Shown: positions 17,351 to 38,947 of the stretch, one piece after another
How the letters are laid out: each line of letters opens with the position of its first letter
Numbering within the stretch: the stretch's first letter is position 1
Program-made: the position numbers and the translations under genes
Notes under the pieces: generated by a model
Databases searched by the model: none
What the model was told of the DNA's origin: nothing
Seen by the model: only the letters and a program-made list of their open reading frames with translations
Assembly (NCBI GenBank): GCA_018649885.1
Contig: JABIHA010000079.1
Coordinates: 1 to 50,001 of the forward strand
Reading direction: 5' to 3'
DNA from: Bacteriovoracaceae bacterium
GTDB lineage: Bacteria > Bdellovibrionota > Bacteriovoracia > Bacteriovoracales > Bacteriovoracaceae
Length of the DNA stretch: 50,001 bases

Positions 17351-17466
17351 CGTCTACTTCCTCTTGAAAAAAATCTATTTTTAAAAACTACATGTAGGGG
17401 ACCTTCATAGTCAATAATTGAAGATGGAGCTTTGTGTTAACTAGGGTTGTCCCTTATAATTGAGAA

Positions 17467-18530: not shown

Positions 18531-18649
18531 ATGCCTTCCTTGTGCTTGCACTTTGCCTTCAACCTCTATTCGATATCAACGGGTTAAAAGCTTAGCTAAA
18601 TACCTATTATTTGAGAAAAGGGGCAAAATGTACTTATGCCTAAACAGAT

Positions 18650-18676
18650 TCAAGTTTTTTCTATCGTTGCCGAAGA
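18650..18676 (+). promoter_or_regulatory. Sigma28 (FliA)-like promoter
   Basis: TCAA-N15-GCCGAAGA, 31 nt upstream of the ATG at 18708. Confidence 0.65.
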
Positions 18677-18707
18677 ATACTCGAGGACTTTGGTTTAGGA
18701 ACCCTCA

Positions 18708-20583: not shown

Positions 20584-20625
20584 TTAAAATCAAATTAAAC
20601 TCACCATTTACGGTACTTGACTAAT

Positions 20626-20653
20626 TAAGTTTAATTTTGTGGTTTCCCGATAA
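20626..20653 (+). promoter_or_regulatory. Sigma28-like promoter
   Basis: TAAG-N16-CCCGATAA immediately upstream of the AGGAGG RBS of ORF 20671. Confidence 0.55.
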
Positions 20654-20670
20654 TTTTAGGAGGAGTTGAG

Positions 20671-21204
20671 GTGGCCAAGATTATTTTGTCTTTATTATTT
20701 ATAGTATCTGCTGCACATGGAAGGTTGTCTGTGCAGGGTAATAAAATCGAGTTCGAAAATACTGGTTATAGCGCTAGATTTTCAAATCCTTGGAAGCTAA
20801 GTAGGTCCAGAAGAATATTGCAAGGACTTGTAGAGATAAGAAATCCTGAAGAAAACTTCAGCATTTATCTCAATGAAAGTTTGAGAACTCACAAGGGGCT
20901 CTCTAAAATAAAAATTGGAAACTTTGTAAAAGACGAGTGCAACCAGATAGCAAAAAGGCTGAAATTACAAAAGAAAACAGTGAGGTTTAAGAGTTCAAAA
21001 AATACTTGCGAAATCAAATATAGTCTAGGCTCTACAAAGTATTATCAAAAGCTTTTTTACGTAAAGAAAACAAGAGGAAAGGTTCCCGATGGAGTGTTTA
21101 TATATGCTCTCAGTAAAAACTATAAAATGAAAAGTGCAACTGAAGATAATAAGACCATGAGGCTAATTAAAGAAGTTTCAAAACGCTTAAGGGGTTTGAA
21201 ATGA
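20671..21204 (+). CDS. Secreted basic hypothetical protein
   Basis: Strong RBS, signal peptide, ATGA overlap with the next gene. Confidence 0.8.
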   Translation: MAKIILSLLFIVSAAHGRLSVQGNKIEFENTGYSARFSNPWKLSRSRRILQGLVEIRNPEENFSIYLNESLRTHKGLSKIKIGNFVKDECNQIAKRLKLQKKTVRFKSSKNTCEIKYSLGSTKYYQKLFYVKKTRGKVPDGVFIYALSKNYKMKSATEDNKTMRLIKEVSKRLRGLK

Positions 21205-23336
21205 AATTGATAGCTTTATTTATTGTCATGATGGTCCCAGTTTATGGATATACTCAAATTGATGATTTTGGAGAGCCTCTTTTTGCTTTAGGTGAACCAA
21301 TCGTAGATGCCACTTATAGACCAGATCGAGCCTGCCCTTTTAAGAGCCAGGGGTATTTATCTGAAAGAATTAAACAAGGGGTTGGCAACTTAGCACAAAA
21401 TGTGGATTCAGTTCTAAAAGGGTGTGACCTAGAGGGTCTTGGAGAAGGGGGAGATGAGATATTATTTCAATATACAGAATATCTAACGGCCCTAGAAAGC
21501 GTTGTATTTGATCCTTTTGCTGAGGCGGGAGTATTAAGCGGTGATGAAGCAGTAGATGATTTTGAGCTTTCGGGAACACAGCAATACAATTGTCTGACCT
21601 ATAAAGAGGAAATAAATAAGCAGTTTGAACTTGCCAGGGAATATTCCATTGAAAATGAAGATGGTATAAAATATACTATTTTTTCAAGTTGTATAGGAGT
21701 TAAGTCCTCCTTGGGAGCCTGTATTCTCGGTACCTATCAAGATTTGATGGCCGCCTCTGAAATTAAATGTTCTGCTGCTGCAGAAGCCTTAAAAACTTCA
21801 ACAAACGAACGAATTCCTGTAGATATTGCTGTCAAGGCCCAAGAGCTTCTTGAGAGAGTGTCTCTTCAAGTGGAAACAGCGAGATCAAGTGAGTGTATAA
21901 ACAATAGTGTTGCTCTTGATGTGACATCTAATTTACTTGATGTATCTTCATTTGTTGGCTCTGTATCTAGTGCATTTGCTAGTCCAGCAGGTTTACTTGT
22001 AGGAGCGGGAACATCTCTTATTTCTACTCTTGTAAATTTAATTGCAAAAATCCCAATTGAAAAAATAAAAGAACTTGGGACAAAACATGAGCAAACAAAA
22101 GAGTTTGTTAACTATGCATGCTTTTACAATGATCTTGAAAGTGAATATTTTAAGTGTCCTGAAAGGCTAAATTCTGAAAAACCAGTTCCAAAAAGTACTA
22201 AGCATATTTGTTTTGAACAATTTTATTACAATGCTGAAGAGGAAACCGGGTTTAAAGCGATTATAGATACCTTTGAAAATATTGATGAGTTTCAAGATAG
22301 AGAGTTTGCTAGGAAATTATCTATTCAAGAACATAAAAAGATACCAGTGCCCGTTTTTAATCCTGGGTCAAAAGAAATTATGCATACTAATATGAGCCCT
22401 GGTGAATTTATGAGTCATATGCAAAAAGAGATTCGCTCTCTTGAAGACAAAGACATAGAGGGTAGCGGACTGGCCCCATTTGATATTGCTTTAGCTGCGG
22501 GTGATCCTTCGGATGAAGACCAAAAGGCGTCCTTTTTAGGAGCGATGTCTTACGCTTATGAAAAATCAAGTGGAAGAAAATTGCCAGATGCTTTTATAGA
22601 GGGGATTAAACCAGGTCTTGAAAGTAGTAATTTTGATACCGCAATGAAGCTTTACTCTATTGCATTAGAAAAAAAGAGAGGTGAAAGCGATAAAAAATCA
22701 GTGGTAGAGATATTTGCAGAGGTCGAAGATAATTTTAAAGTTAACGACGACTTGATGAAAAAATACGATTTACTACAAAGTAAAAAAGGAGGTAGTTTAA
22801 ACTCTATTGATAAAACGGCTTATACGTTTGTTAGATCACTTTTAAAAGGAAAGTATACATCTCAAATTGCAGATAGATTTGGTGATACTCAAAACTTTTT
22901 TGGAGAAACTGAGAATTTTAAAAAATTCGCGAAAGGCATAAGAGAGAAGAAACCTATTAGTAAAACTCTATATGATTCTGTGGGCGCTGCATTTGATCAA
23001 AGCTTTGGCGAGCTTTATCGAAATTGTCATCTCGGTTATTCAATGCTTAATAATATTGATTATATTGGTGATAACTCCATTAGCTCAAATGCTGATTACA
23101 ATAAAAAATGCGGTCGCATTATTAACTGTTCACCCGCTACACATGCATCTCCTAAAGATAAGTCTGAAGACGAAATCATGCAGTTTCAGTGTCTCAGAAA
23201 ACAAAACTTTGAAAAAGATTTAGCAAAGATTAAAGCTAGATTTTTAAAGAATCCTACTGCTCCAGTTTGCAAGGATAAAGAAGATCAGTCCTTTTCACGT
23301 AATCAGCTTGTCTACAGCGGAACTATAGCCGATTAA
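21201..23336 (+). CDS. Secreted Cys-rich hypothetical protein with an internal hydrophobic helical segment
   Basis: Signal peptide, many Cys, segment FVGSVSSAFASPAGLLVGAGTSLISTLVNLI. Confidence 0.85.
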   Translation: MKLIALFIVMMVPVYGYTQIDDFGEPLFALGEPIVDATYRPDRACPFKSQGYLSERIKQGVGNLAQNVDSVLKGCDLEGLGEGGDEILFQYTEYLTALESVVFDPFAEAGVLSGDEAVDDFELSGTQQYNCLTYKEEINKQFELAREYSIENEDGIKYTIFSSCIGVKSSLGACILGTYQDLMAASEIKCSAAAEALKTSTNERIPVDIAVKAQELLERVSLQVETARSSECINNSVALDVTSNLLDVSSFVGSVSSAFASPAGLLVGAGTSLISTLVNLIAKIPIEKIKELGTKHEQTKEFVNYACFYNDLESEYFKCPERLNSEKPVPKSTKHICFEQFYYNAEEETGFKAIIDTFENIDEFQDREFARKLSIQEHKKIPVPVFNPGSKEIMHTNMSPGEFMSHMQKEIRSLEDKDIEGSGLAPFDIALAAGDPSDEDQKASFLGAMSYAYEKSSGRKLPDAFIEGIKPGLESSNFDTAMKLYSIALEKKRGESDKKSVVEIFAEVEDNFKVNDDLMKKYDLLQSKKGGSLNSIDKTAYTFVRSLLKGKYTSQIADRFGDTQNFFGETENFKKFAKGIREKKPISKTLYDSVGAAFDQSFGELYRNCHLGYSMLNNIDYIGDNSISSNADYNKKCGRIINCSPATHASPKDKSEDEIMQFQCLRKQNFEKDLAKIKARFLKNPTAPVCKDKEDQSFSRNQLVYSGTIAD

Positions 23337-23806
23337 TTTCTTTGGCACTCCCTAACAAGTGGCATCAAACTAGGATCAAATTCATCAATAAGTGGCCTTA
23401 CTTGATTAACAATTGATTTCTTTCTTCTTAAAATATGAACAAGACGGCAAAGGTTATCAACTCCTGTACCTGTATTAACGATTGAAAAACCAGTGACATT
23501 ATATTTAGTATCAAAAAATAGTGGGTATAGAAGCTCTTGATACTCTAGTCTTACAATTTGTCCGGAATATTTCTCAAGGCTGTCACCTAATTTTCCATCA
23601 CGAATAGAAAATTGCCATGTCAGCAGATCCCCACTTCCTAAATCTAAGATTCCTTCATGAGTTTTAAGTATCATACCTTTCTTAGATAATTTAACTAACC
23701 GTCCCGTTCTAGAACCTTTAGAGTAGCTGTAATTAAGAAGTCCGTAGATTACCGCTGCTACGATCAAACCAATAATCAGTACTGCAAATACAATCTTTTT
23801 TTTCAT
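23333..23806 (-). CDS. Membrane-anchored hypothetical protein
   Basis: N-terminal TM helix followed by YS.G.R.G.LVK.S.KG...KT.EG.L. Confidence 0.8.
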   Translation of the reverse strand: MKKKIVFAVLIIGLIVAAVIYGLLNYSYSKGSRTGRLVKLSKKGMILKTHEGILDLGSGDLLTWQFSIRDGKLGDSLEKYSGQIVRLEYQELLYPLFFDTKYNVTGFSIVNTGTGVDNLCRLVHILRRKKSIVNQVRPLIDEFDPSLMPLVRECQRN

Positions 23807-23810
23807 AGTT

Positions 23811-24425
23811 TCACTTTTTCTTTTTACTTTGGTTTAGAAAATTATCAATTATCTCTGAGGCTTTTGCCACTGTTATGTGAAAATCATTGTAGACAACTTC
23901 TCTACTGGGAGAAATTATCACTGCCCATGGAGTTCCGCCACTTTTATAATCGTACATACTCATGGATTTCTTTGCCCCTTCAAGGGAGCCGTCGTCATGG
24001 GCCATGGGGATATTTAATTTAAATCTATTTTTGATGCTGAGGACCTTCTGCTTTGAATTAACTTGAAGCCCTTCAAACACAGTTTGTATGGCATAAAACT
24101 CAACTGACTTATTGTCTTTGTATTTCTCACTCAAGGCCTTGATGGTGGGAAGCCCATGAGACAAGCACCCTGGGCACCAGCTTTGGAAGAAGTGTAAGTA
24201 AATTATTTTTCCATCTTGATCACTTAATTTATATGGCACTGTGGGCTTCCCCACAGGACTATACCAGAGCATTTTTCTGAATTCAGGGGCCAGTTTACCT
24301 AGAATTCCAAGCTTTCTTTTAGCTGGTAGCGGTCCAGAATTCAAAATACTGATAAAAAAAACAAGCGTGTAAATAAATTTTATTGAAGACACATCTAGCT
24401 CACAAAATATTGAATTAAATTTCAA
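23811..24425 (-). CDS. TlpA/redoxin family thioredoxin-fold protein
   Basis: APEF, FQSWCPGC, TVFEG and GTP motifs. Confidence 0.85.
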   Translation of the reverse strand: MKFNSIFCELDVSSIKFIYTLVFFISILNSGPLPAKRKLGILGKLAPEFRKMLWYSPVGKPTVPYKLSDQDGKIIYLHFFQSWCPGCLSHGLPTIKALSEKYKDNKSVEFYAIQTVFEGLQVNSKQKVLSIKNRFKLNIPMAHDDGSLEGAKKSMSMYDYKSGGTPWAVIISPSREVVYNDFHITVAKASEIIDNFLNQSKKKK

Positions 24426-24488
24426 TTAGTTAACATTATAACTGTCCTTATGCCAAAGGTCCTTAAAAGTTCACAACCTGAAAAATAT

Positions 24489-24515
24489 TAAGGTGTTAGC
24501 ATTGATAACCGATAG
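24489..24515 (+). promoter_or_regulatory. Sigma28-like promoter
   Basis: TAAG-N15-ACCGATAG, 27 nt upstream of ATG 24543. Confidence 0.55.
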
Positions 24516-24542
24516 GAATAGTAGGATTTTAAATAGAAGGTT

Positions 24543-25703
24543 ATGAAAAAATTTAAGATAATTTTATTTTTATTCAGCTTTGTTCTAAGCGCTTCCTCTT
24601 TTGCAAAAAAGAAAGGGGAAGTTTTCTATACAGTCGTTGAGGGTGATCAACTGGGAACTATTTTGTACTCACTTGGGTCTATTGGACTTTGGGGTCCGAA
24701 AGGAAGTGTCACCAAATTCGTAAATTCAGGCAAACCAGACGCCATGGTGCTTGAACCTGGAGATAAAGTATTCATAGAGGCCCAAATTATAAAATACGAA
24801 TGCAATATTCAATTTATCGGAACAAGAGAATTCATAATTCTTAGAAAAATGAGAAAGACAAAACAAAAAGAGCACTATTTAAAAACCTCTCATGATAAAT
24901 GCCTCGATTTTAGAATGATTTCTTCTATCTTTAAAGATGAAGATGAAGATGAAGATGAAGATAAAGATAAAATTGAAATTGAAGAAGAAAGCAAAGTTGA
25001 AGTTCAAAGAAAGGGAAGAAAATCGAGGATTACATTTGTTCCAAGAATTGGATATGGAAAAATTGATCTGGTTCAAAAAAATAATGGGGCAACGGGGCGG
25101 GCCATCTCAAAACTCAACACTGGCGGAAAGCTATCATGGGCCCAGCTTTGGAATGAAAGGCTTGAGACCTCTTTAATTTTCGATGTTGAGAAAAAACAAT
25201 TTGAGAAGGTCAATAACAGAACAGTCACAGGTCTAGGCCACACGCTATATAACTTTGGAATTGGAGGAAAGTTAAATTTACTTCGCTGGCTTGCTCTCGA
25301 AAGTGAGATCACTTATGGTAATGACATCATCGCAAGAGTTCCAAGCACCACCTCTATGACCATAGACCGAGGAAGTAATTATAAATTTAAAGGTGGAACT
25401 GAGATTACATTCGCCGATTTAAACCCATTTAAAATAGGTATGAATGCAGGCGCTATTTTAAAAACAGGAGTAGACACTGGAACCTATAAGTCGGATCTAG
25501 GTTGGGGGGGGGACTCTTCTATCTTTATTGAGCAACAATTTTCTGATGGAGTTACTGGAAGAGGAGGGTTGGGTTACCTTTATGAAAAAAGAAACACAGA
25601 CCTTGTAAGAGAAACCTTTACTGAAATGATATTCTTTTTTGGAGTTGGTGTTAACTTTGGAAGCGAAGATAAAAAATCCTCAAAAGAAGAAGGCCAGCAC
25701 TAG
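24543..25703 (+). CDS. Secreted protein with a LysM-like N-terminal domain and probable C-terminal outer-membrane beta-barrel
   Basis: Signal peptide SSFA; YTVVEGDQL..I ... L.PGD; alternating amphipathic strands ending FFGVGVNF. Confidence 0.75.
   Translation: MKKFKIILFLFSFVLSASSFAKKKGEVFYTVVEGDQLGTILYSLGSIGLWGPKGSVTKFVNSGKPDAMVLEPGDKVFIEAQIIKYECNIQFIGTREFIILRKMRKTKQKEHYLKTSHDKCLDFRMISSIFKDEDEDEDEDKDKIEIEEESKVEVQRKGRKSRITFVPRIGYGKIDLVQKNNGATGRAISKLNTGGKLSWAQLWNERLETSLIFDVEKKQFEKVNNRTVTGLGHTLYNFGIGGKLNLLRWLALESEITYGNDIIARVPSTTSMTIDRGSNYKFKGGTEITFADLNPFKIGMNAGAILKTGVDTGTYKSDLGWGGDSSIFIEQQFSDGVTGRGGLGYLYEKRNTDLVRETFTEMIFFFGVGVNFGSEDKKSSKEEGQH
24936..24983 (+). repeat. In-frame hexamer microsatellite
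   Basis: (GATGAA)4(GATAAA)2(ATTGAA)2 encoding DEDEDEDEDKDKIEIE. Confidence 0.85.
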
Positions 25704-25731
25704 GCTGACCCTTAATTATTAGTTTAACTTA

Positions 25732-28218
25732 TTAAAGAAATTCACCTTCTATGATCTTGATTAAAACTCCAGTGGGCATCTCTCCCATGGTAGGCTGGAT
25801 GAAATCAGGGATATCATCGAGACTTAGAGACTCATCTATCTCAACTTGGCACACTTCTTCCTCATCTATCTCGTCTAGTACACGAAAACCATACTTGGGC
25901 TTAACTTTATAAGAAACATTTGGATTAATGAGATCTGGATAATCGCCTTCAGGAATATTCACGATGTGGTCTTTTTCATAGTCGGGAAGGGCGCCGTCAT
26001 TTTCTCTAATCATCTGGTAGTAATCTGGGAGTCCAATGATGTGGCCATCAAAACCAAAAAATCCGTGTTCAATCCCTTTAGCATCAACAACTTGATTAAA
26101 GTAAACTGGCTCATCTAAAATTTCATACTCACCCGTCGATACAGATCTTAAATAGTGGACATAAGTATGTGAGTCTTCATCTTGATCATAATTCCAGGAA
26201 AAATATCTATCAAGTTCCTCTGAATAGAGTTTATTTTTGTGTGTCTGGACAAGGACTTCTGTTTGGTCATCAATAATTTCAACAAGTGCTTGAAGTGTAA
26301 AATTAAAGCGGTAGGTTCCTAAAAGCTCACCACCATTTTCATTTCTTTGAAAAATAATACCATCTAAAAGAGGCTCGTCGAGAGGTGTGACAGCATACTC
26401 CATAATTCTTGTAACTTCAGTAATTTCATTTTGTGAAGCATCGCCGACAAAAACCTTGTATTCAAATTGACCTGCATAGAGGCTATATTCTTTATTACTC
26501 TTTGGAAAATTAAATGGGTGAGGATTTGTTAGTACTGGATCCCAGTCATTTTGATTTTCTGGATTAAAGTAGGAATCAAACTGTACCCAGTCGGTACCAT
26601 CAAATTCCACAAAATAGGGCCTCCAGGTATAGATCTCTATTCTTGCGCCTGATTCAACAATAAGGGGAATCCTAGGGGACACACCATCAATTTCTTGGCC
26701 CAATAAATAAAATCCATCATTTGTGTCATTTACAAAAACCTGCCCGCCATTTGGTTGGTGAACAATAATCGCTGAGTGGTTTCTTTGTTCTTCATTGTTT
26801 TTATACTGGTACACATTGACGGCATCTGCTTCAAATTGATCACACACATTCCACTCATTGTAACCGGTGCAATTTCTAAAGCCCACTTCCGAGTCATAAT
26901 AGTAAATGAAGTGCTCACTTATCCATGAGGTAACCATACCATTTTTTAATTCTTCGATATTAGCGCTTGCAGATGAACTTTTAGACAAGTAGCCTTTGTA
27001 TTTTCCTGCATAGAAATACTCGCGAGTCACACCGTCATCACCACCATCGTGATGAGTTTCTTTAAATATAGTTCCAATCTCAATTTCTTCATCTTCATGG
27101 ATTCCATAAATCCCATGTCTTCCCCTCCAGGCACCATACCAAAAATACCTATCATGGCCTTCTTCTGAAGGGAGAACTAGTGAGTATCCATATTTTTTCT
27201 CTTTTTCAATATTTGATCCATCACTTTTGTAAACATTGTAGTCAACATAGACATCAGTAAATGAATGTCTACTTTTGCACACAGGGACATCACCCGTTTT
27301 CATTTTTACGTGATTGGGGTTGTAAGCGTATGATGCATTGACGACTTCAAAAGTATCTTCAAAACCTGGGTTATGGATTCTTTTGGGATAGGTAATGACT
27401 CCTTTTCCAGAGCTATCTGTTAAAATGAGTTTACCAACTGTTTGATGCTCATGATTATCAAAACCTTCTTCTTTAACAATGATAACTGATTTTCCTTCTG
27501 CATTAAGAGACGCGCTTGCAGAAAACTGTCCATTTGTGCTTAGGTCAGTTCTATCAATAGCAGCATTTAGTGTCCAAATACCATAGCGATTGGTAGCAGT
27601 TGCTGGAGCATAAATATGAAATTGGGCCTTGACCACTTCCTCTTCATCGCTAATCCAAACATCCACAATATTCACATTTTGTCCGTCAATAAGCTCCATC
27701 TTTGAATCGACGATCCATTTTTCCATTTCGGTCTCATGCTTATCTTCCCATTTTATAAGAGCAGCATAGGGGCCACTATTTATATTTAAAGGATCTTCAT
27801 ATTTAGTTTGTTTAAGTGCCTTTAAAATATGGTCTACGATATCAAATTGTTCGATAGATTTTTCGCTGACTTTTATATAGAGCTTGTCCTTATCAAAGTC
27901 TGTTGGTAGCTCATCCAGTGCACTAAGTACAAATTGTCCAGACTCTAGAGCATCAGCACTACTTACACTGTAGCTATCAATATTACTTTCTGGAGGAATA
28001 ACCTCAAGGCCATCTGGCAGTGAAAAACCAGAGACATCTGCCTGGACAGGAACTTGTACACCTCCACCGCCAGTTGCTGGGGGAGCAGCACTAACAGTAG
28101 TATCTGCAGAACTGGACGATTTCTTTGTGGCAGTGTCGAAACAGCCTTGATTTAAAATTAGTACTGGTAAAAAAAGAAGTGACCATGTTAGTTTTTCGAA
28201 ATTCCATTTTCGACTCAT
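25732..28218 (-). CDS. Large acidic lipoprotein of unknown function
   Basis: 828-aa ORF; hydrophobic signal ending in Cys (LILNQGC), S/A/P/G-rich linker, beta-rich aromatic body. Confidence 0.85.
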   Translation of the reverse strand: MSRKWNFEKLTWSLLFLPVLILNQGCFDTATKKSSSSADTTVSAAPPATGGGGVQVPVQADVSGFSLPDGLEVIPPESNIDSYSVSSADALESGQFVLSALDELPTDFDKDKLYIKVSEKSIEQFDIVDHILKALKQTKYEDPLNINSGPYAALIKWEDKHETEMEKWIVDSKMELIDGQNVNIVDVWISDEEEVVKAQFHIYAPATATNRYGIWTLNAAIDRTDLSTNGQFSASASLNAEGKSVIIVKEEGFDNHEHQTVGKLILTDSSGKGVITYPKRIHNPGFEDTFEVVNASYAYNPNHVKMKTGDVPVCKSRHSFTDVYVDYNVYKSDGSNIEKEKKYGYSLVLPSEEGHDRYFWYGAWRGRHGIYGIHEDEEIEIGTIFKETHHDGGDDGVTREYFYAGKYKGYLSKSSSASANIEELKNGMVTSWISEHFIYYYDSEVGFRNCTGYNEWNVCDQFEADAVNVYQYKNNEEQRNHSAIIVHQPNGGQVFVNDTNDGFYLLGQEIDGVSPRIPLIVESGARIEIYTWRPYFVEFDGTDWVQFDSYFNPENQNDWDPVLTNPHPFNFPKSNKEYSLYAGQFEYKVFVGDASQNEITEVTRIMEYAVTPLDEPLLDGIIFQRNENGGELLGTYRFNFTLQALVEIIDDQTEVLVQTHKNKLYSEELDRYFSWNYDQDEDSHTYVHYLRSVSTGEYEILDEPVYFNQVVDAKGIEHGFFGFDGHIIGLPDYYQMIRENDGALPDYEKDHIVNIPEGDYPDLINPNVSYKVKPKYGFRVLDEIDEEEVCQVEIDESLSLDDIPDFIQPTMGEMPTGVLIKIIEGEFL

Positions 28219-30159: not shown

Positions 30160-31284
30160 ATGCCCTTTGTTATCATTCTTGCAGTTTATTCTGTGATAAT
30201 GCAAATTACTGACACTAAGACTCCCGTTTTTCGGCTTTCAGTTCTTCTGATCGTTGGGGTGTATTGGTATTTTAAAGATAGAATCGATAATAGTCTGCTC
30301 AGTTATGTTAACTCCGAAAAAACTAAAAAAATATTAATGATCCTTGTGATACTTCTATCTGTTGCTCGAGTAGCTCAAACAATCTACCGAATTGGAAAAC
30401 CTCGCGGCTTTATGGAAGATCAAGCCGCCCTTATGAAAAATTCCACAGAGGCCTTAGTGAAAAGAGGTGAAAATTTTTACACAGTCTACGTGGACCCATA
30501 CGGGGTTACCATGAATGATGGCACTGAAAAAAGATTTGATGGCCATAAATATACACCCCTTCAAAATCTTATCTACGGCCCCTGGACTCTTTTATTTGAT
30601 TTGAAGGGAATGTACGTAGGCAATATATTTTCTTACGTTGGAATTGCCACAACAATTTTTCTAATACTCAAATCCCTTTCATTGGTTCACGGACTTTTTG
30701 GGCTTTTAATTTTTCTCACAACAGACTTTGTCTATGTATTGGCATTTAATAACGGAACCACTGATTTTTACCCCACCCTATTTTCTCTCCTATCTCTTGC
30801 TAGCTTGCAGCGTGGAAAAGAAAATAGAGCGGGGATACTTCTGGGCCTCAGCATTGCATGCAAGCAAGTTCCTGGAGCTATTTTCGCTCTGTATGCATTG
30901 ATTCAAAAAAAATATAGGGTCTTTTTATTGGCCTCAGCCGTATTTTGGGTAGTGTGCCTGCCCTTTGTCATTTGGGATCCCCAGTCATTTTTTAGACAAA
31001 TTTTTGAATTTCCTATGGTCAGACCTCCAGGCCCTCTTGCAATGATGTATTATTTGCCCGAGTGGGGAAAATTGATCTTTAAAATTGTAGGCCCTTTAAC
31101 AATTTCTTTAGCTTTTCTTAATAGAAAGGACAGTACCTGGTTACTCCAGAAAGGATGGGCCCTCGCTGCATGGGGAGTCTATATATTTATTCTCTTCATG
31201 AAAATGTCCCCAACCCATTACTTCGTATGGACTTGTCCTTTCATCATTTTATGGTTTCTTACTCCCAGGAAAAAAGCTGTTTGA
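30160..31284 (+). CDS. Polytopic membrane glycosyltransferase, GT-C/GT87 (DUF2029)-like
   Basis: Many TM helices; Y.P, NGT.D, GILLGLS.A.KQ.P and PF..W.P..F patterns. Confidence 0.7.
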   Translation: MPFVIILAVYSVIMQITDTKTPVFRLSVLLIVGVYWYFKDRIDNSLLSYVNSEKTKKILMILVILLSVARVAQTIYRIGKPRGFMEDQAALMKNSTEALVKRGENFYTVYVDPYGVTMNDGTEKRFDGHKYTPLQNLIYGPWTLLFDLKGMYVGNIFSYVGIATTIFLILKSLSLVHGLFGLLIFLTTDFVYVLAFNNGTTDFYPTLFSLLSLASLQRGKENRAGILLGLSIACKQVPGAIFALYALIQKKYRVFLLASAVFWVVCLPFVIWDPQSFFRQIFEFPMVRPPGPLAMMYYLPEWGKLIFKIVGPLTISLAFLNRKDSTWLLQKGWALAAWGVYIFILFMKMSPTHYFVWTCPFIILWFLTPRKKAV

Positions 31285-31351
31285 AACTGTGCATTTCTCG
31301 TCATACAATCCTCTAGTTAATTTTTACAATTTTCTTACATGGAGGATGAAA

Positions 31352-32665
31352 TTGAAAAAGTTCCTTTTCTTGGCGCTTGTACTGCAAAGTTTATCAGGCT
31401 TTGCACAGTTTAAAAGCGTTGATTATAACAACTATTCAGCAGCTCTAAAAGTTTGGTACGGAGTCGCTAGTCCCAACAAAGTGGGCACAGTTTACAAATC
31501 TAATATCCTCTCAAACTCTTTTGCAATTTACTTTGATGATTACTTTAAAAAACAAAGTAAGTGGGTTCTTGCAAAAAAGATTCTCTACAGTGGTAGCAAT
31601 CCTAGCTTTAAACGGATAGAGAGAGTTCAAATGTCCCAAGCCCCTTATAACGATAAGGTGATTGGAACATATAACCACTTGTGGATATATCAAAAGGCAG
31701 ACCCTGCTAAGAGGCTTCTTCTTATCCAAAGTGGGACTAGTCTAGGCGCCTACTATAATAGGTCTGATGGTAAGTCATTGAAAATGGCCAATACCTATCT
31801 AGAAGAAATAGAAAAAGACCTCCTTTCAACGACTCCCTATAGAGGAAGAGTTCTTGAGTTTGCAAAAAATAAAATTTCATTTTGGCAGGGAGTAGACTCA
31901 CTCAATGTGGATTGGAATAAGTTTATTTTTAATAGTGATGAAAAAATCCAAATGCAGCAAACTATTGATGGTTTTTTAAATAACTATGGAAGCGCTGATT
32001 GGGAGAAATACAAACTTCCTAAAAATAGAGGTGTTCTTCTCTATGGGCCTCCCGGAACTGGAAAGAGTTTTGTGGCGAAAATTTTGGCCTCAAATGTTAT
32101 GAAAAATCGCTATAAAAATAAAGTGACTTATATTCATGTACAGGCCAGACATTTGAGCTACTCTGTCTATGTTCGTCAGCTCTATGATGCCGCAAGAATA
32201 CTATCACCCTCTGTTGTATTCATTGAAGACGTGGATTTGATAGCAGGAACTGATCGAACAGATCGGGCCGATGTTAAAAATGAGCTGATGCAACAACTTA
32301 GTGGGGTAGAGAGCTTAAAAGGTGTTATCACTATTGCTACTACCAATCTCGCTGAAAAAATTGACCCAGCTCTTAAAAGAAGTAAAAGACTTGGCTTCCA
32401 TCATCTTGTAGGCCTTCCTAGCTACGACTCTAGAGTGGATCTATTTAAACTCTATACTAAAAAATACCTTGTTCAAGATTTAGACTACGGTCGTCTCTCT
32501 TCTAAAACTGAAGGAAAAACGGGAGCTGATATTAAAGAAATTGTTCAGCTTGCTGTAGAGAAATCTATTTATGACGGGGAAGTAGATCGGGGCACAAAAA
32601 ATGTATTGCTCTATCAACGCAATATGGAGTTGGCCTTAAAAGGTAAGAATAAGTGGAAAAACTAA
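31352..32665 (+). CDS. AAA+ ATPase with N-terminal signal peptide (paralog 1)
   Basis: Walker A GPPGTGKS, Walker B VFIEDVD, sensor/SRH ATTN..IDPAL.RS.RL. Probable start TTG 31352 (or ATG 31346) after GGAGG; the ORF track starts at 31289. Confidence 0.9.
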   Translation: MKKFLFLALVLQSLSGFAQFKSVDYNNYSAALKVWYGVASPNKVGTVYKSNILSNSFAIYFDDYFKKQSKWVLAKKILYSGSNPSFKRIERVQMSQAPYNDKVIGTYNHLWIYQKADPAKRLLLIQSGTSLGAYYNRSDGKSLKMANTYLEEIEKDLLSTTPYRGRVLEFAKNKISFWQGVDSLNVDWNKFIFNSDEKIQMQQTIDGFLNNYGSADWEKYKLPKNRGVLLYGPPGTGKSFVAKILASNVMKNRYKNKVTYIHVQARHLSYSVYVRQLYDAARILSPSVVFIEDVDLIAGTDRTDRADVKNELMQQLSGVESLKGVITIATTNLAEKIDPALKRSKRLGFHHLVGLPSYDSRVDLFKLYTKKYLVQDLDYGRLSSKTEGKTGADIKEIVQLAVEKSIYDGEVDRGTKNVLLYQRNMELALKGKNKWKN

Positions 32666-32682
32666 TCGTAAGGAAGAATGTC

Positions 32683-34089
32683 ATGAAACAAATATATAAA
32701 ATTTTATTACTCACTGGCCTTTTGGCCTTTGGGAGCGCATCTTTTGCAAAAGATGCGGATGATCCGAATTTCAACAATTGGCCAAACGCTGCTTATAGCT
32801 GGCTCAATGTTACATCTCTTGGAGATACACACTCACTAACTACAACAGTTTTAAGTGATTTTGTTAATCTCCATTACGTAGCAACTTCTAGGTATTTAAA
32901 TGATCCAGCAAGCAACTATACAATTTACGATAGAGCTGCTTATGTGTGGGGACAAAGAGTTCCAATTAGCACTGATTATGTCCAGGTAAACAACCACGGT
33001 GGTTCTGAGCTGATGATGGTGGGAGGTGGCTACTACTTTGTTCATATAGGAAAGGATAAGAGCACTGCTAAGCGGGCGATTATTGCAGTGAGAACTGACT
33101 ATTACAGAAATTATGTAACAATTTATACAAATGATTCCAACATTGATTTGACCAAGAGTATTTTGAAAAATATCGAAAGCTACCTAGATAAGAAAAATAT
33201 TTATAAAAATGGTGTGGTTGAATTTAAAGAATATAAAATTGGCTTCATGCAAAACACTAATAATTACCAATACAAGTGGGATGATCTCATCATTGATAAG
33301 ACTATCAAGGATGTGACCTATCTCAATACCCATGAGTTTTTGAATAAGTTTCCTACTTATAAAACTTACGGCGTAAAACCCAAAAAAGGGATTTTACTTC
33401 AAGGTCCTCCAGGCACTGGTAAGTCTTTTCTGGGACAGATTATGATTTCAAATGTCTTACATGGGAATTTGAAAAATAAATCATCATTTTTCTACCTCTC
33501 AGCAAGGCATTTAAATGGCAGTAAGAGAATTAAAAGACTATTTGATGCTGCTAAATTGATTTCACCCACCACACTTTTTATGGAAGACATAGATCTTGTT
33601 GGTGTAAGCAGTAGAGGCGGTAGTAAAAAGCCTGTTTACAATCAAATTGTATTAAACGAGTTTTTAAATGGTCTAGATGGACTGGTTGAAAGTGAAGGAA
33701 TCCTCACAGTTGCTACAACTAATAGAGGCGACGCTCTTGATCCTGCTCTTTTACGCTCAGGTAGGCTTGGACTTCATATTACATTTGATCTCCCCAAGTT
33801 TTCTGTAAGAAAAGAGTTCTTTATTAAGTACGGAAAAAGAAAAGCTGTTTGGGACGTTGATGTTGACGTTGAATGGCTAGCTTCTGAATCAGAGAAATTT
33901 TCTGGTGCAGATATTATTGAGGCCATAGACCTTGCAAAGCAGATGGCCTTTCAGCAAAACTCTAAAACTAAAGACGGAGAAAATCTGCTACTTACTAAAG
34001 CACACTTCGCAAAAGCATTTTCCATTATCAGTGTAAACCAAGATGGGAAATCATTTATTCAAGCATTAGACGTTAGCTCACTTAGATAA
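32683..34089 (+). CDS. AAA+ ATPase with N-terminal signal peptide (paralog 2)
   Basis: GILLQGPPGTGKS, LFMEDID, ATTNR..LDPALLRSGRL. Probable start ATG 32683 after AAGGA; the ORF track starts at 32653. Confidence 0.9.
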   Translation: MKQIYKILLLTGLLAFGSASFAKDADDPNFNNWPNAAYSWLNVTSLGDTHSLTTTVLSDFVNLHYVATSRYLNDPASNYTIYDRAAYVWGQRVPISTDYVQVNNHGGSELMMVGGGYYFVHIGKDKSTAKRAIIAVRTDYYRNYVTIYTNDSNIDLTKSILKNIESYLDKKNIYKNGVVEFKEYKIGFMQNTNNYQYKWDDLIIDKTIKDVTYLNTHEFLNKFPTYKTYGVKPKKGILLQGPPGTGKSFLGQIMISNVLHGNLKNKSSFFYLSARHLNGSKRIKRLFDAAKLISPTTLFMEDIDLVGVSSRGGSKKPVYNQIVLNEFLNGLDGLVESEGILTVATTNRGDALDPALLRSGRLGLHITFDLPKFSVRKEFFIKYGKRKAVWDVDVDVEWLASESEKFSGADIIEAIDLAKQMAFQQNSKTKDGENLLLTKAHFAKAFSIISVNQDGKSFIQALDVSSLR

Positions 34090-34122
34090 AAAAAAGGGCC
34101 CATTTAAAAATGGGCCCCTTTT
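34088..34122. terminator. Bidirectional intrinsic terminator
   Basis: A-tract, GGGCCCATTT-aa-AAATGGGCCC, then CTTTT; lies between the convergent AAA and sodB genes. Confidence 0.85.
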
Positions 34123-34147: not shown

Positions 34148-34729
34148 CTATGCTAGGTTTTTGTTAGCAAAATCCCAATTAACAAGATTCCAGAAAGCTT
34201 CTACATATTTAGGTCGAGCATTTCTGTAGTCGATGTAATAGGCGTGTTCCCAAACATCACAAGTTAAAACAGGAGTATGTCCATCTCTAAGAGGACAGTC
34301 TGCATTTGTTGTTTGTACGATATCAAGGCTTCCGTCAGCAGTCTTAACTAGCCAACACCATCCTGAACCAAAAAGAGTTCCAGCTTTTGCAGTAAACTCT
34401 TCTTTAAATTTATCAAAAGATCCCCACTTAGCATTAATCGCATCAGCTACTGCTCCAGCAGGAGTACCGCCGCCATTTGGCTTAAGTGAGTTCCAGTAAA
34501 ATGTGTGGTTCCAGATTTGGGCGCCATTATTAAAAATTCCACCTGTGGCTCCTCGAACGATATCTTCAAGGGATTTTCCTTCCCATTCAGTACCTGGGAC
34601 AGCCGCATTTAACTTTGCAATATAGCCAGCGTGGTGCTTGCCGTAATGAAACTCTAAAGTCTCTGGTGAAATATGTGGTGTCAAAGCGTCATTAGAGTAG
34701 GGTAGTTCTGGTAATTTATGCTCCATCAT
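34148..34729 (-). CDS. sodB: Superoxide dismutase [Fe]
   Basis: [21 protein letters not shown] and [11 protein letters not shown] motifs. Confidence 0.95.
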
Positions 34730-34881: not shown

Positions 34882-35853
34882 TTGGGACAAAGGAAACCTA
34901 GAGTGAAATTGATTTATTTAATGGTGCTATTAACATCTACTATCGCTCTGGCGCAAAGGCCCGCGTGGATCAACAATCCCGGCGAGGGCTGTACCCCATT
35001 AGAATTGTGTGGTGTCGGTGAGGGCTCAGGGCTGATGTCAGCTGAAGCAGCTGCTAGAAGGGCCCTAGCGCTCATATTCAAGGCACAAATCAAATCTGAG
35101 AGCACATCCACCAAGAGCGTATCTCAAACTGGGGGCGATGAACTCTTAAGTTCAGATATCACAGAAGAGACTCAATTTTTTGTCACTGAGATCACTGATA
35201 AGGTGATTGAGGGATCAGTTGTTAAGAAAAGATTTGAAAAAGAAGGCAGAGTCTTTGTTTTAGTTGCACTCAAAAAGAGGAAAGCTGCAGCGAGACTGAA
35301 AAGTGAAATGGATTTGATGGATCAAAAAATGAAGTCTCTTTTAAAAGAGGGAAAAAGATCATCACTCCATAGAATACTCAAAATGTACGATATTAGGGAA
35401 ACTCTCAATAGGGACTACGAGTTTCTCACTAATTTCAAAAATCCCGCCGTCATCTCCCTTGCCGAGGTTCAAAGAAAGAGACTTAAGTATGTTGATCGAA
35501 AGACAACATTAAAGGTTCAGATATTTGGTGATGATACTTTAAAGAGTGTAGAGAGCACTTTAGTACAAGCGTTGCTGGATAGCGGCTTTAGAATAGTGCC
35601 AGAAGCAAATTCTTCTAGCTTTGCCATTAAAGGCGAATTTAAGTCTGACCGTTTATTTTTGAACGTGAAAGGTTTCGAGAAGCATCAGTTTCATCTGACG
35701 CTCTATACTCAGAACAAGTTGGGGTCTAAAATTGGGGCCCTCAATTACTCCACCGTGAAACTTGCTAGAAGTGGAAAGCAGGCCATGGAAAAAGCGATGC
35801 TGGAGATGAAGTCATTTATTAAAGAAAATCTTGATGAGCTAAATATTGATTGA
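34882..35853 (+). CDS. LPP20-like secreted protein
   Basis: P.WI..P...CGVG.G....A...A...LA..F...I pattern; probable start GTG 34903; first gene of the lipoprotein operon. Confidence 0.75.
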   Translation: MGQRKPRVKLIYLMVLLTSTIALAQRPAWINNPGEGCTPLELCGVGEGSGLMSAEAAARRALALIFKAQIKSESTSTKSVSQTGGDELLSSDITEETQFFVTEITDKVIEGSVVKKRFEKEGRVFVLVALKKRKAAARLKSEMDLMDQKMKSLLKEGKRSSLHRILKMYDIRETLNRDYEFLTNFKNPAVISLAEVQRKRLKYVDRKTTLKVQIFGDDTLKSVESTLVQALLDSGFRIVPEANSSSFAIKGEFKSDRLFLNVKGFEKHQFHLTLYTQNKLGSKIGALNYSTVKLARSGKQAMEKAMLEMKSFIKENLDELNID

Positions 35854-35876
35854 GTGATCCTTTTTGGAGGTATGAA

Positions 35877-36566
35877 ATGAAATTCATAGCAGTTTTAACA
35901 ATGGCGTCCCTGTTTATTCTTGGAGGTTGTTCAAGTTCTAAGCACAAAGAAAAACTTGAAGTTCAAGACAACACGGAGACGATTAAAAAAGATTATGAAG
36001 TAAGAGATGCAAGTCATACTATGCGACCAGCATGGGTGCAAAATGCAATTTTATGGGCAGATGAAGTTGGCAAAGATGGCGCTAAATTTAGATACCACTC
36101 CTATCAAACGGGTGTAAAGGTTGATAGAGAAACGGCGTGCTCTCTTGCTAAAACTTATGCAAGAGCAGATGTGGCTTCAGAGATTTCTAGTTTTATCCAA
36201 AAGACTATGGCCGCCTCAAAAGAAGGACAGGCAAGTATCGATGATACCAATCCTGTAACAGCACCTCTTCGTGAGTATATTGAAGACACCTTGGCCGAAA
36301 GAGTTCAAGCCTTTCTTCACGGTGCAAGCCTCAGGGGAACCTACTGGGAAAAAAGATTCTATCTTCAAGACATGGGCGCTAGTAGAAATTACACGGGCTA
36401 CACCTGTGCAGCTCTTATTAGAATTGAAAACAAATTCATAAAAGAGGCAATTGGCAGGGCCATCGCTCAACTTGTGAACAAAACTGATTCAAATCTAAAA
36501 AGCAATGTTAAGCAGGCGCTTGATAATGTGGCTGACTCTTATTTAAAAGAAACTGGTAAAATGTAA
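35877..36566 (+). CDS. Lipoprotein (LPP20-like)
   Basis: GGAGG RBS, lipobox LGGC, RP.WV, A...ARA.VA..I and YWEK. Confidence 0.75.
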   Translation: MKFIAVLTMASLFILGGCSSSKHKEKLEVQDNTETIKKDYEVRDASHTMRPAWVQNAILWADEVGKDGAKFRYHSYQTGVKVDRETACSLAKTYARADVASEISSFIQKTMAASKEGQASIDDTNPVTAPLREYIEDTLAERVQAFLHGASLRGTYWEKRFYLQDMGASRNYTGYTCAALIRIENKFIKEAIGRAIAQLVNKTDSNLKSNVKQALDNVADSYLKETGKM

Positions 36567-36584
36567 TAATATTTGGAGATAAAA

Positions 36585-37205
36585 ATGAAAAAATTCCTGC
36601 CTCTAATAACTCTTTTAACACTAACATCTCTTTTTTCTGTTAGCTGTGGAAGTTTTAAGGCCAAAAGAGTGGATTCAAAAGAATCAGATGAAAAGGCCCT
36701 TGAGATTACCGATGAATGGGTTAATGCGGACACAGAAAGAATTGTTCGTGATCTAATGAAGCAAGTGAGTGCTCACAGAGGTTGGAAGAGATTTCTTACA
36801 ACTTACAGAGGGACTCCAAAAGTTTTTATTGGAGAGGTTCAAAATCTTACTAGTGAGCCCTACTTTCCAATCTCTGATCTAAATGACGAGCTTTTAAATG
36901 AACTCTCAGCGAGTGGAGACTTTGTTCTTGTGGACGCATCTGCCAGAGAAGCCATCTTAAAAGAGATTACTTATCAAAATGACGGAATGGTTGATCCAAG
37001 TACCGCCAAGTCTATTGGAAAACAAACAGGCGCTGATTTGATTATCTTTGGAAATGTTCACATGAAGCCAAAAGCACGCGCCGGCAAAACCATTAAGGAA
37101 TACTCAGTTAACGTAAGAATGACCAATATTGAAAAGGCCGTTGAAGTTCTTAGAACAAGGGCCAAGCTGTTTAAGTACTCAGACCAAGCTGCATCTGGCT
37201 GGTAG
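36585..37205 (+). CDS. Penicillin-binding protein activator LpoB/CsgG-like lipoprotein
   Basis: Lipobox SVSC; V.NLTSE, SG.F..VD...R, YQ..G.VD..TA..IG.Q.GAD patterns. Confidence 0.85.
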   Translation: MKKFLPLITLLTLTSLFSVSCGSFKAKRVDSKESDEKALEITDEWVNADTERIVRDLMKQVSAHRGWKRFLTTYRGTPKVFIGEVQNLTSEPYFPISDLNDELLNELSASGDFVLVDASAREAILKEITYQNDGMVDPSTAKSIGKQTGADLIIFGNVHMKPKARAGKTIKEYSVNVRMTNIEKAVEVLRTRAKLFKYSDQAASGW

Positions 37206-37210
37206 AGTAG

Positions 37211-38947
37211 GTGCTAAAAACAAATAGGGGCAGAAAGTATTCACTATTTTCTGCCTTACTACTTTCAATTCTTCTTCTTTCTTCCTGCTCTAGCACTCAA
37301 CATAAAGAGCAGTCAGCTTTTAGAGATCTCTACAAAAGTGGCCAATACGATGAGGCGCTATCGCTTTTAAAAGACTCAGAAGTAGGAAAAGACCAGGACA
37401 ACCAACTTTTATATTATTTTGAAAAAGCTCTGATTCATCATTCAAAAAAAGAATACTACCAATCAGTTTTAACTTTCAACAAGGCCATTAAAAAGGCCCG
37501 TCAGCTTTATACTGAAAGTATCTCAAAAAAGATTTTAAAAGGCCTTGTTAACGATAAGGTAGATAAATACTACGGGCTTCCCTATGAAGTCTCTCTTGCC
37601 TACTTCTACGCAAGTTTAGGGCACTATCTCATTGCTCAGCAGGGATTTTATGAGAGATATACCCCCGCTACTCCCGATGCCAAGCCCATTAAAAGGGTCG
37701 ATTTGAGCAAAGGCCAGCGCAGGAAAGAACTACTTAGTGCTCGTGCCACAGTAGTAGCGTGGGATAGCTTTTTAAAAACTCTTCGGGCCCAAAAATTGGG
37801 GAAGAGTGTTTTTAAAGATGATCTACTTGCAAAAACTTGGGGAGCTTTTATTCACGAGGCGATTGCCACTAGTCAGGATCTTCAAACTGCTCTTTTACTT
37901 TATAGAAAGGCCCGTGAGTTAGTGTTCAAAAATTATAATTCTTACAAGGCCTACAATACACTTTCAAAAAAATTCAGAGGGGATTTTGAAAGGCTTCCCT
38001 CTCTACCGAAGAGTAAAGTCAAAAGTGACTACATTGCTAGAACTCCACATCAAGCACAGCTGTCTGATTTCCTAGACAGAAAAATTATTTCTCTCACAAA
38101 AAAATTCAGACCCAGAAGAGTCAAGAATCTAAAAACTCAGTTGGGTATTGATCCCAAATTGATCAAAGAAGTTCCAAGTTATTCAAAAAATGCCACCAAT
38201 ATTACAGTTGTTCTTCAAAATGGAATGGTTCCTCACAAGAAACCCAAGAGATACGATATTGGAATCGAAGGGGCGCTGAAGGCCACTAAAAATCGCACAG
38301 CAAGAAGGATTATCACCCAAGTGGGAGTTCCTCTTCTTGGAGCATTTGCTGCCAATCAGTTGGGATTGATTCCTAAAAGAGCAAGCTATCCTGGAGCGAT
38401 GATTGGACTCTATGGTGCCCAAGCGGCAGTGGCCATTGCCACCATTGGATTTGAACTCCCTATTATGAGATCACCTTACGATGGTAGAGCAGGGGTACTC
38501 GAAATTACCGATGAGTCCGGAGCTCCAGTTAAATCTCTTAAGATTCCTATTGCTTCACCTCTTGGTGATATTGCAGAAGAGTCCGTAGTTGAAAATACAT
38601 CTGCACTTTATTTGAGAACTGGATTAAGGGTTGCTGGAAAACATGTTGCGGCCATCGCAACAGCTTATATGACTTACAAGAGTTTAAAGAAAACCCTCCC
38701 GGCAAAGTGGGCCGCCGTTGCTGGTTACTCACTTGCCTCAAGAGGAATTTCAGAAACTGAAAAAGCAGACGTTCGTTACTGGAGTACACTGCCTTTTGAT
38801 GTGAAGCTTAGAAGCTTTCACCTAGGACCTGGAAAGTATCATCTAAAGTACAATTTCGCGGGAAAGGTAATCGACTTGGGAGTTCACCATGTTAAAAATA
38901 ATGGTATTCCACTTCTAATTAATAGGCGCTTAGCAAATCTGTACTGA
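37211..38947 (+). CDS. COG3014 family TPR lipoprotein
   Basis: Lipobox LSSC; D.LLY..E, Y.G..YE and AD.R.W.TLP motifs; adjacent to the LpoB-like gene. Confidence 0.85.
   Translation: MLKTNRGRKYSLFSALLLSILLLSSCSSTQHKEQSAFRDLYKSGQYDEALSLLKDSEVGKDQDNQLLYYFEKALIHHSKKEYYQSVLTFNKAIKKARQLYTESISKKILKGLVNDKVDKYYGLPYEVSLAYFYASLGHYLIAQQGFYERYTPATPDAKPIKRVDLSKGQRRKELLSARATVVAWDSFLKTLRAQKLGKSVFKDDLLAKTWGAFIHEAIATSQDLQTALLLYRKARELVFKNYNSYKAYNTLSKKFRGDFERLPSLPKSKVKSDYIARTPHQAQLSDFLDRKIISLTKKFRPRRVKNLKTQLGIDPKLIKEVPSYSKNATNITVVLQNGMVPHKKPKRYDIGIEGALKATKNRTARRIITQVGVPLLGAFAANQLGLIPKRASYPGAMIGLYGAQAAVAIATIGFELPIMRSPYDGRAGVLEITDESGAPVKSLKIPIASPLGDIAEESVVENTSALYLRTGLRVAGKHVAAIATAYMTYKSLKKTLPAKWAAVAGYSLASRGISETEKADVRYWSTLPFDVKLRSFHLGPGKYHLKYNFAGKVIDLGVHHVKNNGIPLLINRRLANLY

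Follow-up and report, generated by a model that had tools for sequence, protein, structure and literature searches.

Can an ATP-driven machine of the AAA+ class be built to work outside the bacterial cytoplasm? The question is raised by two adjacent genes, here termed A and B, on contig JABIHA010000079.1 from a Bacteriovoracaceae bacterium (assembly GCA_018649885.1), of which the first 50,001 nucleotides (nt), hereafter the window, were analysed. Both genes encode AAA ATPases that begin with a signal-peptide-like segment, whilst the periplasm is generally held to lack adenosine triphosphate (ATP). The genome (5.45 Mb in 151 contigs, 92% complete, 3.9% contamination) carries three such A-B pairs, on contigs C5, C7 and C83. 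On the evidence set out below, A and B are, on balance, probably a pair of paralogues from the Bcs1/YjoB branch of the AAA ATPases that has acquired Sec, signal-peptidase-I-like peptides and acts as an exported chamber machine. An original prediction made from the DNA letters alone had proposed that the pair is exported, and knew of no description of such a system; likewise, no description of signal-peptide-bearing bacterial AAA ATPases or of the A-B pair was found in the literature searched, with subscription journals mostly outside its coverage. One of the nearest items, in the available part of its source, is a table entry 'Secreted AAA ATPase' for SCO1434 (PMC4255298).

Genes A and B are co-directional on the plus strand of the window. 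Gene A (31346..32665, plus strand) encodes an A-type ATPase of 439 amino acids (aa) when read from ATG 31346. Its open frame extends from 31289 to 32665, and the likely starts are this ATG or TTG 31352 (437 aa), the shorter form being the one held in the public protein collection. A GGAGG ribosome-binding site (31341..31345, plus strand) abuts the ATG and lies 6 nt 5' of the TTG, and with either start the peptide M(KL)KKFLFLALVLQSLSGFA ahead of Q is retained. Gene B (32683..34089, plus strand) encodes a B-type ATPase of 468 aa from ATG 32683, with an AAGGAA ribosome-binding site (32669..32674, plus strand) 8 nt 5' of that codon. The two products are 33% identical from residue 140 to the end. 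A promoter-like TTGAAA-17-TACAAT (10/12 matches) is present 5' of gene A at 31281..31309 on the plus strand, and a GTG start at 31289 is disfavoured because this site is placed downstream of that GTG. Past gene B, a terminator-like hairpin of nine pairs, six of them G-C, followed by a T run (34096..34117, plus strand), is common to B and the convergent superoxide dismutase gene sodB (34148-34729, minus strand). The genes had been described as 17 nt apart with a common terminator: the intergenic gap of 17 nt was confirmed, and the hairpin, like the promoter-like site, is weak evidence from motif scans in which shuffled sequence yields equally many sites, which makes both compatible with a two-gene operon. 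As part of the explanation favoured here, A and B probably do form one operon of two paralogous AAA ATPases.

Each product starts with a predicted signal peptide, as had been read earlier at the codons supported by ribosome-binding sites. In A it comprises residues 1-20 (31346..31405, plus strand), MKLKKFLFLALVLQSLSGFA ahead of Q, and in B residues 1-22 (32683..32748, plus strand), MKQIYKILLLTGLLAFGSASFA ahead of KDADDPNF. In all six A and B paralogues encoded in the genome, the K/R-rich n-region is followed by a short hydrophobic stretch with small residues at -3 and -1, and a signal-peptide-like N-terminus is seen throughout the 37 family members examined. The n-region is 2-8 residues long, K/R-rich and net positive in 34 of these 37 rows, whilst the flank on the C-terminal side is acidic or neutral, with a net charge of zero or below over the 15 residues past the hydrophobic stretch in 31. 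In a set of 37 sequences adjusted for this purpose (two fragments dropped, two over-long calls trimmed to an internal Met and two metagenome members added), the strict -3/-1 rule is satisfied in 32; the other five have small residues at -3/-1 and a charged residue in the c-region. By rule of thumb the profile of a Sec/signal peptidase I substrate is satisfied (positive n-region, short h-region, small -3/-1 residues and no Cys at +1), and the peptides have been kept in A and B paralogues alike across divergence to ~33% identity. A further hydrophobic segment was not seen in any of the 37 rows, the mean Kyte-Doolittle value of a 19-residue window after residue 40 reaching at most 1.41, against the 1.6 taken to indicate a membrane helix. 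The absence of a second transmembrane helix that had been noted earlier is borne out by this value.

Other readings of the N-terminus were dropped at this stage. A true start downstream of the hydrophobic segment was ruled out, as the conserved A33 and W37 lie directly after it. A lipoprotein was dropped because no lipobox Cys was seen on reading the family sequences, and a Tat substrate because a twin-arginine motif is not consistently present. In the AlphaFold model of A, the predicted local distance difference test (pLDDT) falls below 50 at residues 17-21, the junction of the helix and the mature domain.

A signal peptide that is not cleaved would act as a type II signal anchor, with the N-terminus inside and the AAA module periplasmic and tethered to the inner membrane. 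The charge distribution fits such an anchor as well as it fits a cleaved peptide, five of the 37 members are without a clean strict -3/-1 site, and the uncharged stretches range from 11 to 25 residues. Most of these stretches, however, span 13-19 residues, with Gly, Ser, Thr or Pro among them, and small residues at -3/-1 followed by an acidic mature N-terminus are the rule. Moreover, a 19-residue hydrophobicity window flagged the N-terminus in just two of the six genome proteins, whilst both helices of FtsH were detected, which marks the N-terminal segments as short and signal-peptide-like. We therefore regard the type II anchor as unlikely and retain cleavage as the preferred reading.

Amino acid composition provides a second line of evidence for export. 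The mature family proteins contain 0.15 Cys per 100 aa (20/37 are without any), compared with 1.57 in 42 distinct signal-peptide-less proteins of a sister family, which have 3-12 Cys each. For comparison, the long open reading frames of the genome contain 1.26 Cys per 100 aa, and when the frames of the genome are split crudely into signal-peptide-like ones and the rest, the values are 0.99 and 1.25, with 22% and 5% Cys-free, respectively. A difference of this size, tenfold between sister clades, is to be expected of proteins living in an oxidising compartment. Taken with the N-termini, it leaves the export of A and B well supported by sequence, and unproven.

The enzymatic part of both proteins is a single AAA module with its lid, located at 32018..32662 in A (plus strand; Walker A 32045-32068, Walker B E-D 32225-32230) and at 33370..34032 in B (plus strand; Walker A 33403-33426, Walker B E-D 33583-33588). 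The Pfam AAA model (PF00004, cut-off 21.2 bits) matches A at 82.4 bits and B at 71.3 bits; both also match AAA_lid_3, and all 22 B-type members match the AAA domain model. In A, an invariant stretch, DLIAGTDRxDRxxVKNELMQQLSG, comes after Walker B. The original prediction had described the modules as complete and of the classic clade. Indeed, the six paralogues agree throughout in Walker A (GPPGTGKS), Walker B (hhhhED, present as FIEDVD or FMEDID), sensor 1 (TTN) and R-S-x-R-L, and ED, not DE, is found in every member aligned. Pore loop 1, however, is non-classical: relative to the 'EMFVGV' stretch of FtsH it has a six-residue deletion, and the aromatic-hydrophobic-Gly motif is missing. An invariant A-R-H-(L/V) precedes the gap, and HMMER puts R-H-L opposite M-W-Y of the Cdc48 D2 module. 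The deletion is common to the family, the sister proteins, a phage-context homologue and a BCS1_N protein of the same phylum (from the genome termed G151), whilst the invariant A-R-H, a Lys-rich insert past the Walker A helix and R-S-(K/G)-R-L-G are features of the family only.

Scans with Pfam and NCBIfam detected no protease domain in A or B, as had been read from the sequence. Among the NCBIfam models, the AAA part matches CDC48, PAN and FtsH, all below threshold, and the Pfam Torsin model gives 20.3 and 15.8 bits (cut-off 27). Known anti-phage ATPases are matched in the AAA part only (PADLOC IetA, 73 and 61 bits; NCBIfam IteA, 75 and 59 bits, cut-off 510), with no full-length match to IetA, IteA or TRIP13, and searches of PHROGs and PADLOC gave generic or partial AAA matches alone. 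FtsH is likewise a classical AAA module of the bacterial envelope, and FtsH_fam matches at 88-116 bits (cut-off 600); unlike A and B, it spans the membrane with two helices, keeps its ATPase in the cytoplasm, shows the DE form of Walker B and an MFVG pore loop, and ends in an M41 zinc protease domain.

Between the signal peptide and the AAA module lies an N-domain of ~165 aa, placed at ~aa 21-200 in A (31406..31945, plus strand) and ~aa 23-205 in B (32749..33297, plus strand). It had been described as Tyr/Asn-rich, which agrees with the 7.9% Y and 7.9% N counted in A and the 10.1% Y and 10.7% N in B. AlphaFold models of the full-length proteins have mean pLDDT values of 88.7 (A) and 86.6 (B), and the N-domains are predicted with confidence as helices and an antiparallel sheet of six to seven strands, resembling the N-terminal domain of YjoB and Bcs1, with the same architecture in B as in A. 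The C-terminal tail of B (34033..34086, plus strand) is of variable length in the family, and its residues 451-468 have low pLDDT. B-type tails extend 3-57 residues beyond the point 45 residues past the SGADI motif of the lid and include a recurrent, amphipathic K-S-(Y/F)-x-x-A-L-x-x-L-like stretch; A-type proteins have a short basic tail.

When the full-length models were used for structure searches, Bacillus subtilis YjoB was the best match for A: Foldseek aligned 418-419 columns at TMq 0.54-0.56, the highest among the matches listed, and VIA-align superposed 351 residues of 7w42_B on model residues 6-436 (Z 21.3, root-mean-square deviation 9.1), whilst the other 49 of the best 50 rows aligned 272 residues or fewer. 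YjoB was the sole solved chain spanning both domains among the VIA-align matches listed for A. For model B, Foldseek returned YjoB (435-439 columns, TMq 0.48-0.49) and the Bcs1 chain 9gsn_A (468 columns); neither protein was among the best 50 rows of VIA-align. Look-alikes proposed by a protein language model include BCS1_N clusters (scores 0.75-0.81), which are leads only. From the models, a YjoB/Bcs1-type fold for the N-domain is likely, though not settled. YjoB and Bcs1 are described, in the available text of the source, as active ATPases with an exceptional ED Walker B, a common N-domain fold and chambered rings, and YjoB as a hexamer with an internal chamber and a proposed substrate-specific chaperone (PMC9565160; PDB 7W42/7W46). 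YjoB and the A/B proteins share a single classical AAA module, the ED Walker B and, going by the models, an N-domain of sheet and helix (~160 aa in YjoB); YjoB differs in being cytoplasmic, in having no hydrophobic N-terminus and in being the product of a single gene, conserved in Bacillales, whereas A and B have the signal peptide, the paired genes, the invariant A-R-H and the Lys-rich insert. The N-domains of the two show no significant sequence match. Among the classical AAA ATPases, the A/B family falls in the branch of Bcs1 and YjoB, which is marked by the ED Walker B. Since it does so, lacks the aromatic pore loop 1 and has YjoB as its best full-length match, a chamber-type chaperone or translocase is more likely than a threading unfoldase. 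The unfoldase of the original prediction is thus weakened by motif and fold, and a chamber machine like those of Bcs1 and YjoB is favoured.

Membership of this branch also suggests another topology, in which the hydrophobic segment is an anchor like that of Bcs1, with the N-terminus outside and the ATPase in the ATP-containing cytoplasm. Mitochondrial Bcs1 passes a folded protein across a membrane and is anchored through a helix at its N-terminus, most of the protein lying in the matrix, according to the part of the report available (PMC7994207). Like A and B, it has the ED motif, pore-loop residues that are not conserved, and the order of hydrophobic segment, specific N-domain and one AAA module; unlike them it is an anchored homo-heptamer with the ATPase on the matrix side, whereas the charge pattern of A and B predicts (and this is a prediction only) the opposite orientation together with cleavage. 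The G151 protein (L105:1414-2622; 402 aa, 63 bits) is the sole Pfam BCS1_N protein in 201 genomes of the phylum, and has an N-terminal hydrophobic helix, Bcs1-like charges and the Walker B VVLIEDID. Such a helix in a relative speaks for an anchor here too, and the problem of ATP would disappear. The flanks of the G151 helix, however, are net negative on the N side and positive on the C side, opposite to the pattern of the family, and neither the depletion of Cys relative to cytoplasmic sister proteins nor the -3/-1 sites would be expected of a cytoplasmic ATPase. An anchor of the Bcs1 type is, in our view, distinctly unlikely, and export with cleavage remains preferred. A word-indexed search with the G151 protein returned itself alone; the next gene downstream reads like a helix-turn-helix (HTH) regulator.

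How widespread, and how old, is the pair? A HMMER search with B against 1.84 billion representatives returned ~21 B-type and 9 A-type full-length clusters, each of 1-3 members, and the remaining matches listed are AAA proteins of generic or multi-domain type. When metagenomes were scanned with a motif specific to A, 80 loci were returned, of which seven belong to the family (three being the genome's own) and the others to the sister family (L113-L185, e.g. L142:2685-4025 and L118:2676-4043). Sister proteins are 445-470 aa long with strongly acidic N-termini and are the closest relatives outside the family, with 38-52% identity between Walker B and sensor 1. The ED motif and the shortened pore loop 1 are common to both families; the sister proteins differ in being encoded by single genes with no paralogous partner, in having 3-12 cysteines, and in the absence of a signal peptide or any hydrophobic N-terminal segment. 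A quick maximum-likelihood tree of the AAA module (62 rows, with every second sister sequence, 21/42, included) placed the family in one clade (SH-aLRT 99) from which the sister proteins are excluded, with support of 99 for sub-clade A and 93 for sub-clade B. Homologues without a signal peptide, which would have spoken against the original prediction, do exist, then, but as a separate sister clade and not inside the family. The simplest reading of the tree would be one gain of a signal peptide, followed by the A/B duplication.

The two genes also travel together. The order A then B was found in all eight assessable loci, namely those with downstream DNA present (three in the own genome, then G183, G381, L110, L111 and L112; L109 is cut off and was left out), and tandem pairing is conserved, a point that the original prediction had asked to be tested. 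The pairs on C5 and C7 arose by recent co-duplication, as both the A and the B side of the tree show. Over seven pairs, A-A and B-B identities co-vary (r = 0.86, with 14/5040 permutations as high), a correlation that owes much to the C5/C7 pair. A and B are inherited as a unit, from which we infer that they associate physically.

The distribution of the family is narrow: it was found only in Bdellovibrionota genomes and unlabelled metagenome contigs, a restriction that had been put forward for testing. The B protein of G183 is named 'AAA family ATPase [Bacteriovoracia bacterium]' by NCBI. Of 401 sampled genomes of the phylum, with at most four candidates scored in each, three carry the pair: the own genome (G000), G183 and G381. 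Searches with the N-domain agree. A query against 24 genomes of the same family as the host matched none, the N-domain of B, used as a single-sequence query against 40 relatives, had no match beyond the own genome, a profile of the domain retrieved only the six A/B proteins in the own genome, and a word-indexed search with that of A found itself alone. A profile scan of genome contigs with patterns from Walker A retrieved generic AAA genes and no family member. The N-domain is at least partly shared with relatives: the G007 protein aligns to profile positions 50-461, and phrog_7485 covers residues 107-380 of B. That G007 protein (L095:1492-2865, minus strand), a homologue, has the same N-domain and ED motif and no signal peptide, and its gene adjoins one that reads like a phage terminase large subunit. 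Beside sister genes, a divergent HTH-WYL-WCX regulator was present in all four neighbourhoods scanned, and PADLOC found no known defence system in the sister family beyond partial AAA matches.

These results bear on the fullest form of the original prediction, in which the pair is secreted into the prey or bdelloplast as a heterohexameric unfoldase or ATP-draining effector. A metagenome-assembled genome labelled Bacteriovoracia is the source of at least one member, the catalytic sites have stayed intact, and a prey cytoplasm would provide the ATP. Against this, the aromatic pore loop 1 used for threading is missing, no signal for crossing an outer or prey membrane was seen in the Pfam and NCBIfam scans, predation by the host organism itself is known from no observation, and the pair is so rare (three of the 401 genomes, none of the 24 by the N-domain query) that it would not be a core predation function. 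An effector of this kind is improbable. That the catalytic motifs are relics, and the exported proteins ATP-independent scaffolds or binders as an ATP-free periplasm would suggest, is highly improbable, because 22 B-type and 12 A-type sequences that are only 33-46% identical show no or almost no variation in the Lys of Walker A, the E-D of Walker B, the sensor-1 Asn and the two arginines, which argues for selection for nucleotide handling.

The preferred reading, an exported chamber machine, can be put as a sequence of steps. A and B would be exported across the inner membrane and cleaved, and would form a mixed ring with a chamber capped by the N-domains as in YjoB and Bcs1. The ring may then spend ATP on holding, remodelling or passing on folded clients outside the cytoplasm, without threading or unfolding them. 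Its ATP could come from prey-derived nucleotides, from an outward exchanger of nucleoside triphosphates for diphosphates (NTP/NDP), or from both.

A candidate for such an exchanger is encoded elsewhere in the genome. A screen for P-loop proteins with signal peptides identified three further AAA+ proteins, all of Clp type, which brings the signal-peptide-bearing AAA+ proteins of the genome to nine: three A-B pairs, two Clp-like proteins in one cluster and one CUB-Clp fusion. The fusion (contig C1:35337-37535; L188:1001-3196) is 732 aa long and combines a signal-peptide-like start, MKFLCILMLTLSFSLMAAAP, with a CUB domain at residues 273-370 and a ClpA/B D2-like AAA+ module with its D2-small domain. 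The cluster (contig C140, ~16467-26660; L208:4468-7191 and L189:2212-9664) consists, in order, of a 907-aa AAA+ protein in which both Walker B motifs are DD, a VWA protein, a 792-aa two-module ClpA/B-like protein, a trypsin-like peptidase, a 213-aa membrane protein, an RCC1-repeat protein and a transporter; all but the membrane protein and the transporter have signal-peptide-like starts. The transporter (25308-26660) matches no family other than TLC/NTT, scoring 58 bits with PF03219 (cut-off 21) and 53 bits with TIGR00769, 'NTP/NDP exchange transporter', whose cut-off of 387 it does not reach. The cluster's core is found again in G298:C11 (L207), G298:C30 (L214) and G183:C10 (L213), and the ED-type A-B pair and the Clp-type cluster are both present in G000 and G183. 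Protein matches to the transporter were found in 60/401 genomes of the phylum at E <= 1e-10; they are mostly weak and probably generic members of the major facilitator superfamily, and among six stronger loci examined AAA+ neighbours were present at G298:C11 only. An ATP transport system has reportedly been described for Bdellovibrio, in 1986. A homologue of NTT is recorded in the marine predator Halobacteriovorax marinus in the part of the source that was available (PMC5381601). As a hypothesis, an NTT-like carrier running outward would feed exported ATPases. It is possible, though doubtful, that this bacterium routinely runs ATP-driven machines outside its cytoplasm, with the exchanger swapping ATP out for adenosine diphosphate and A-B as a chaperone or translocase of folded proteins. 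In that tentative picture of nine exported AAA+ proteins, the exchanger would energise the periplasm or a compartment between predator and prey. The transporter beside other signal-peptide-bearing AAA+ genes weakens the objection that the periplasm has no ATP, and does not remove it.

Several points weigh against an exported, ATP-driven A-B machine. Export and cleavage are drawn from rules of thumb and composition, and both the cysteine and the pairing statistics are inflated by kinship, since related sequences are not independent, so that the p-value is overstated. The ATPase of the known relatives, Bcs1 and YjoB, is in the matrix or the cytoplasm, as far as the available text of the source goes (PMC9565160). 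The likeness of the N-domain to theirs is without support in sequence: none of the 22 B-type members matched Pfam BCS1_N, and hhalign against the one BCS1_N protein, that of G151, aligned the AAA part only, the N-domains alone giving E = 0.25. A periplasmic source of ATP is not established. The homologous transporter adjoins the Clp-type cluster in only two of the four loci (G000 and G298:C11), the relative in G298 is not recognised by Pfam at 1e-4, the transporter is a distant member of its NTT-like family, and PF03219 was not found in five other genomes, including the pair-bearing G183 and G381. Evidence of expression is limited to a single metatranscriptome, in which one contig of 151 nt, at depth 2, matches gene A internally and exactly; carry-over of DNA is possible for it.

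The question matters beyond this locus. On the premise of an ATP-free periplasm, folding, quality control and transport in the envelope are taken to be independent of ATP or powered from the cytoplasmic side, a premise that is challenged by a family of AAA ATPases with export signals and selected catalytic residues. With signal-peptide-bearing AAA+ genes and an exchanger-like transporter in one genome, the premise becomes testable in a single lineage. Nucleotide-dependent proteins are present in organelles in compartments that are topologically outside the cytosol, as A and B would be, and some reach them by a signal peptide; unlike A and B, none is a Sec-exported bacterial AAA ATPase, and their routes of ATP supply are known. 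Human CLPB is said to reside in the intermembrane space of mitochondria, and Lig E is reportedly a periplasm-targeted ATP-dependent ligase. If export holds true, there would be a bacterial counterpart of the lumen of the endoplasmic reticulum or of the intermembrane space in mitochondria, in which nucleotide carriers supply AAA+ proteins, and bacterial predation would gain a new kind of tool; if it is refuted, the family would be a case of misleading textbook signal-peptide features, useful for benchmarking predictors.

The surroundings of the pair are those of an ordinary chromosome, with rho, prfA, murA, ruvX, lnt, fliN and sodB amid many orphan genes in the window, which speaks against an obvious island. 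Many of the orphan genes around the pair have signal-peptide-like starts. No conserved neighbour gene was found beside the pair among the five genomic loci compared. Directly upstream of gene A (window 30160-31284) is a gene resembling GT87-family membrane glycosyltransferases (33 bits), which is not conserved beside other A-B pairs. The same DNA as the A-B locus is present, with no differences, in marine metagenomes of several studies. Further upstream, window 12935-28218 holds about eleven consecutive open reading frames with no Pfam match at 1e-5, mostly with signal-peptide-like or lipoprotein-like starts and with sizes that include 1217, 711 and 828 aa. Downstream of the convergent sodB, four successive genes with lipoprotein-like starts occupy 34882-38947, and are, in order, LPP20-like, unassigned, LpoB-like and an unassigned gene of 578 aa.

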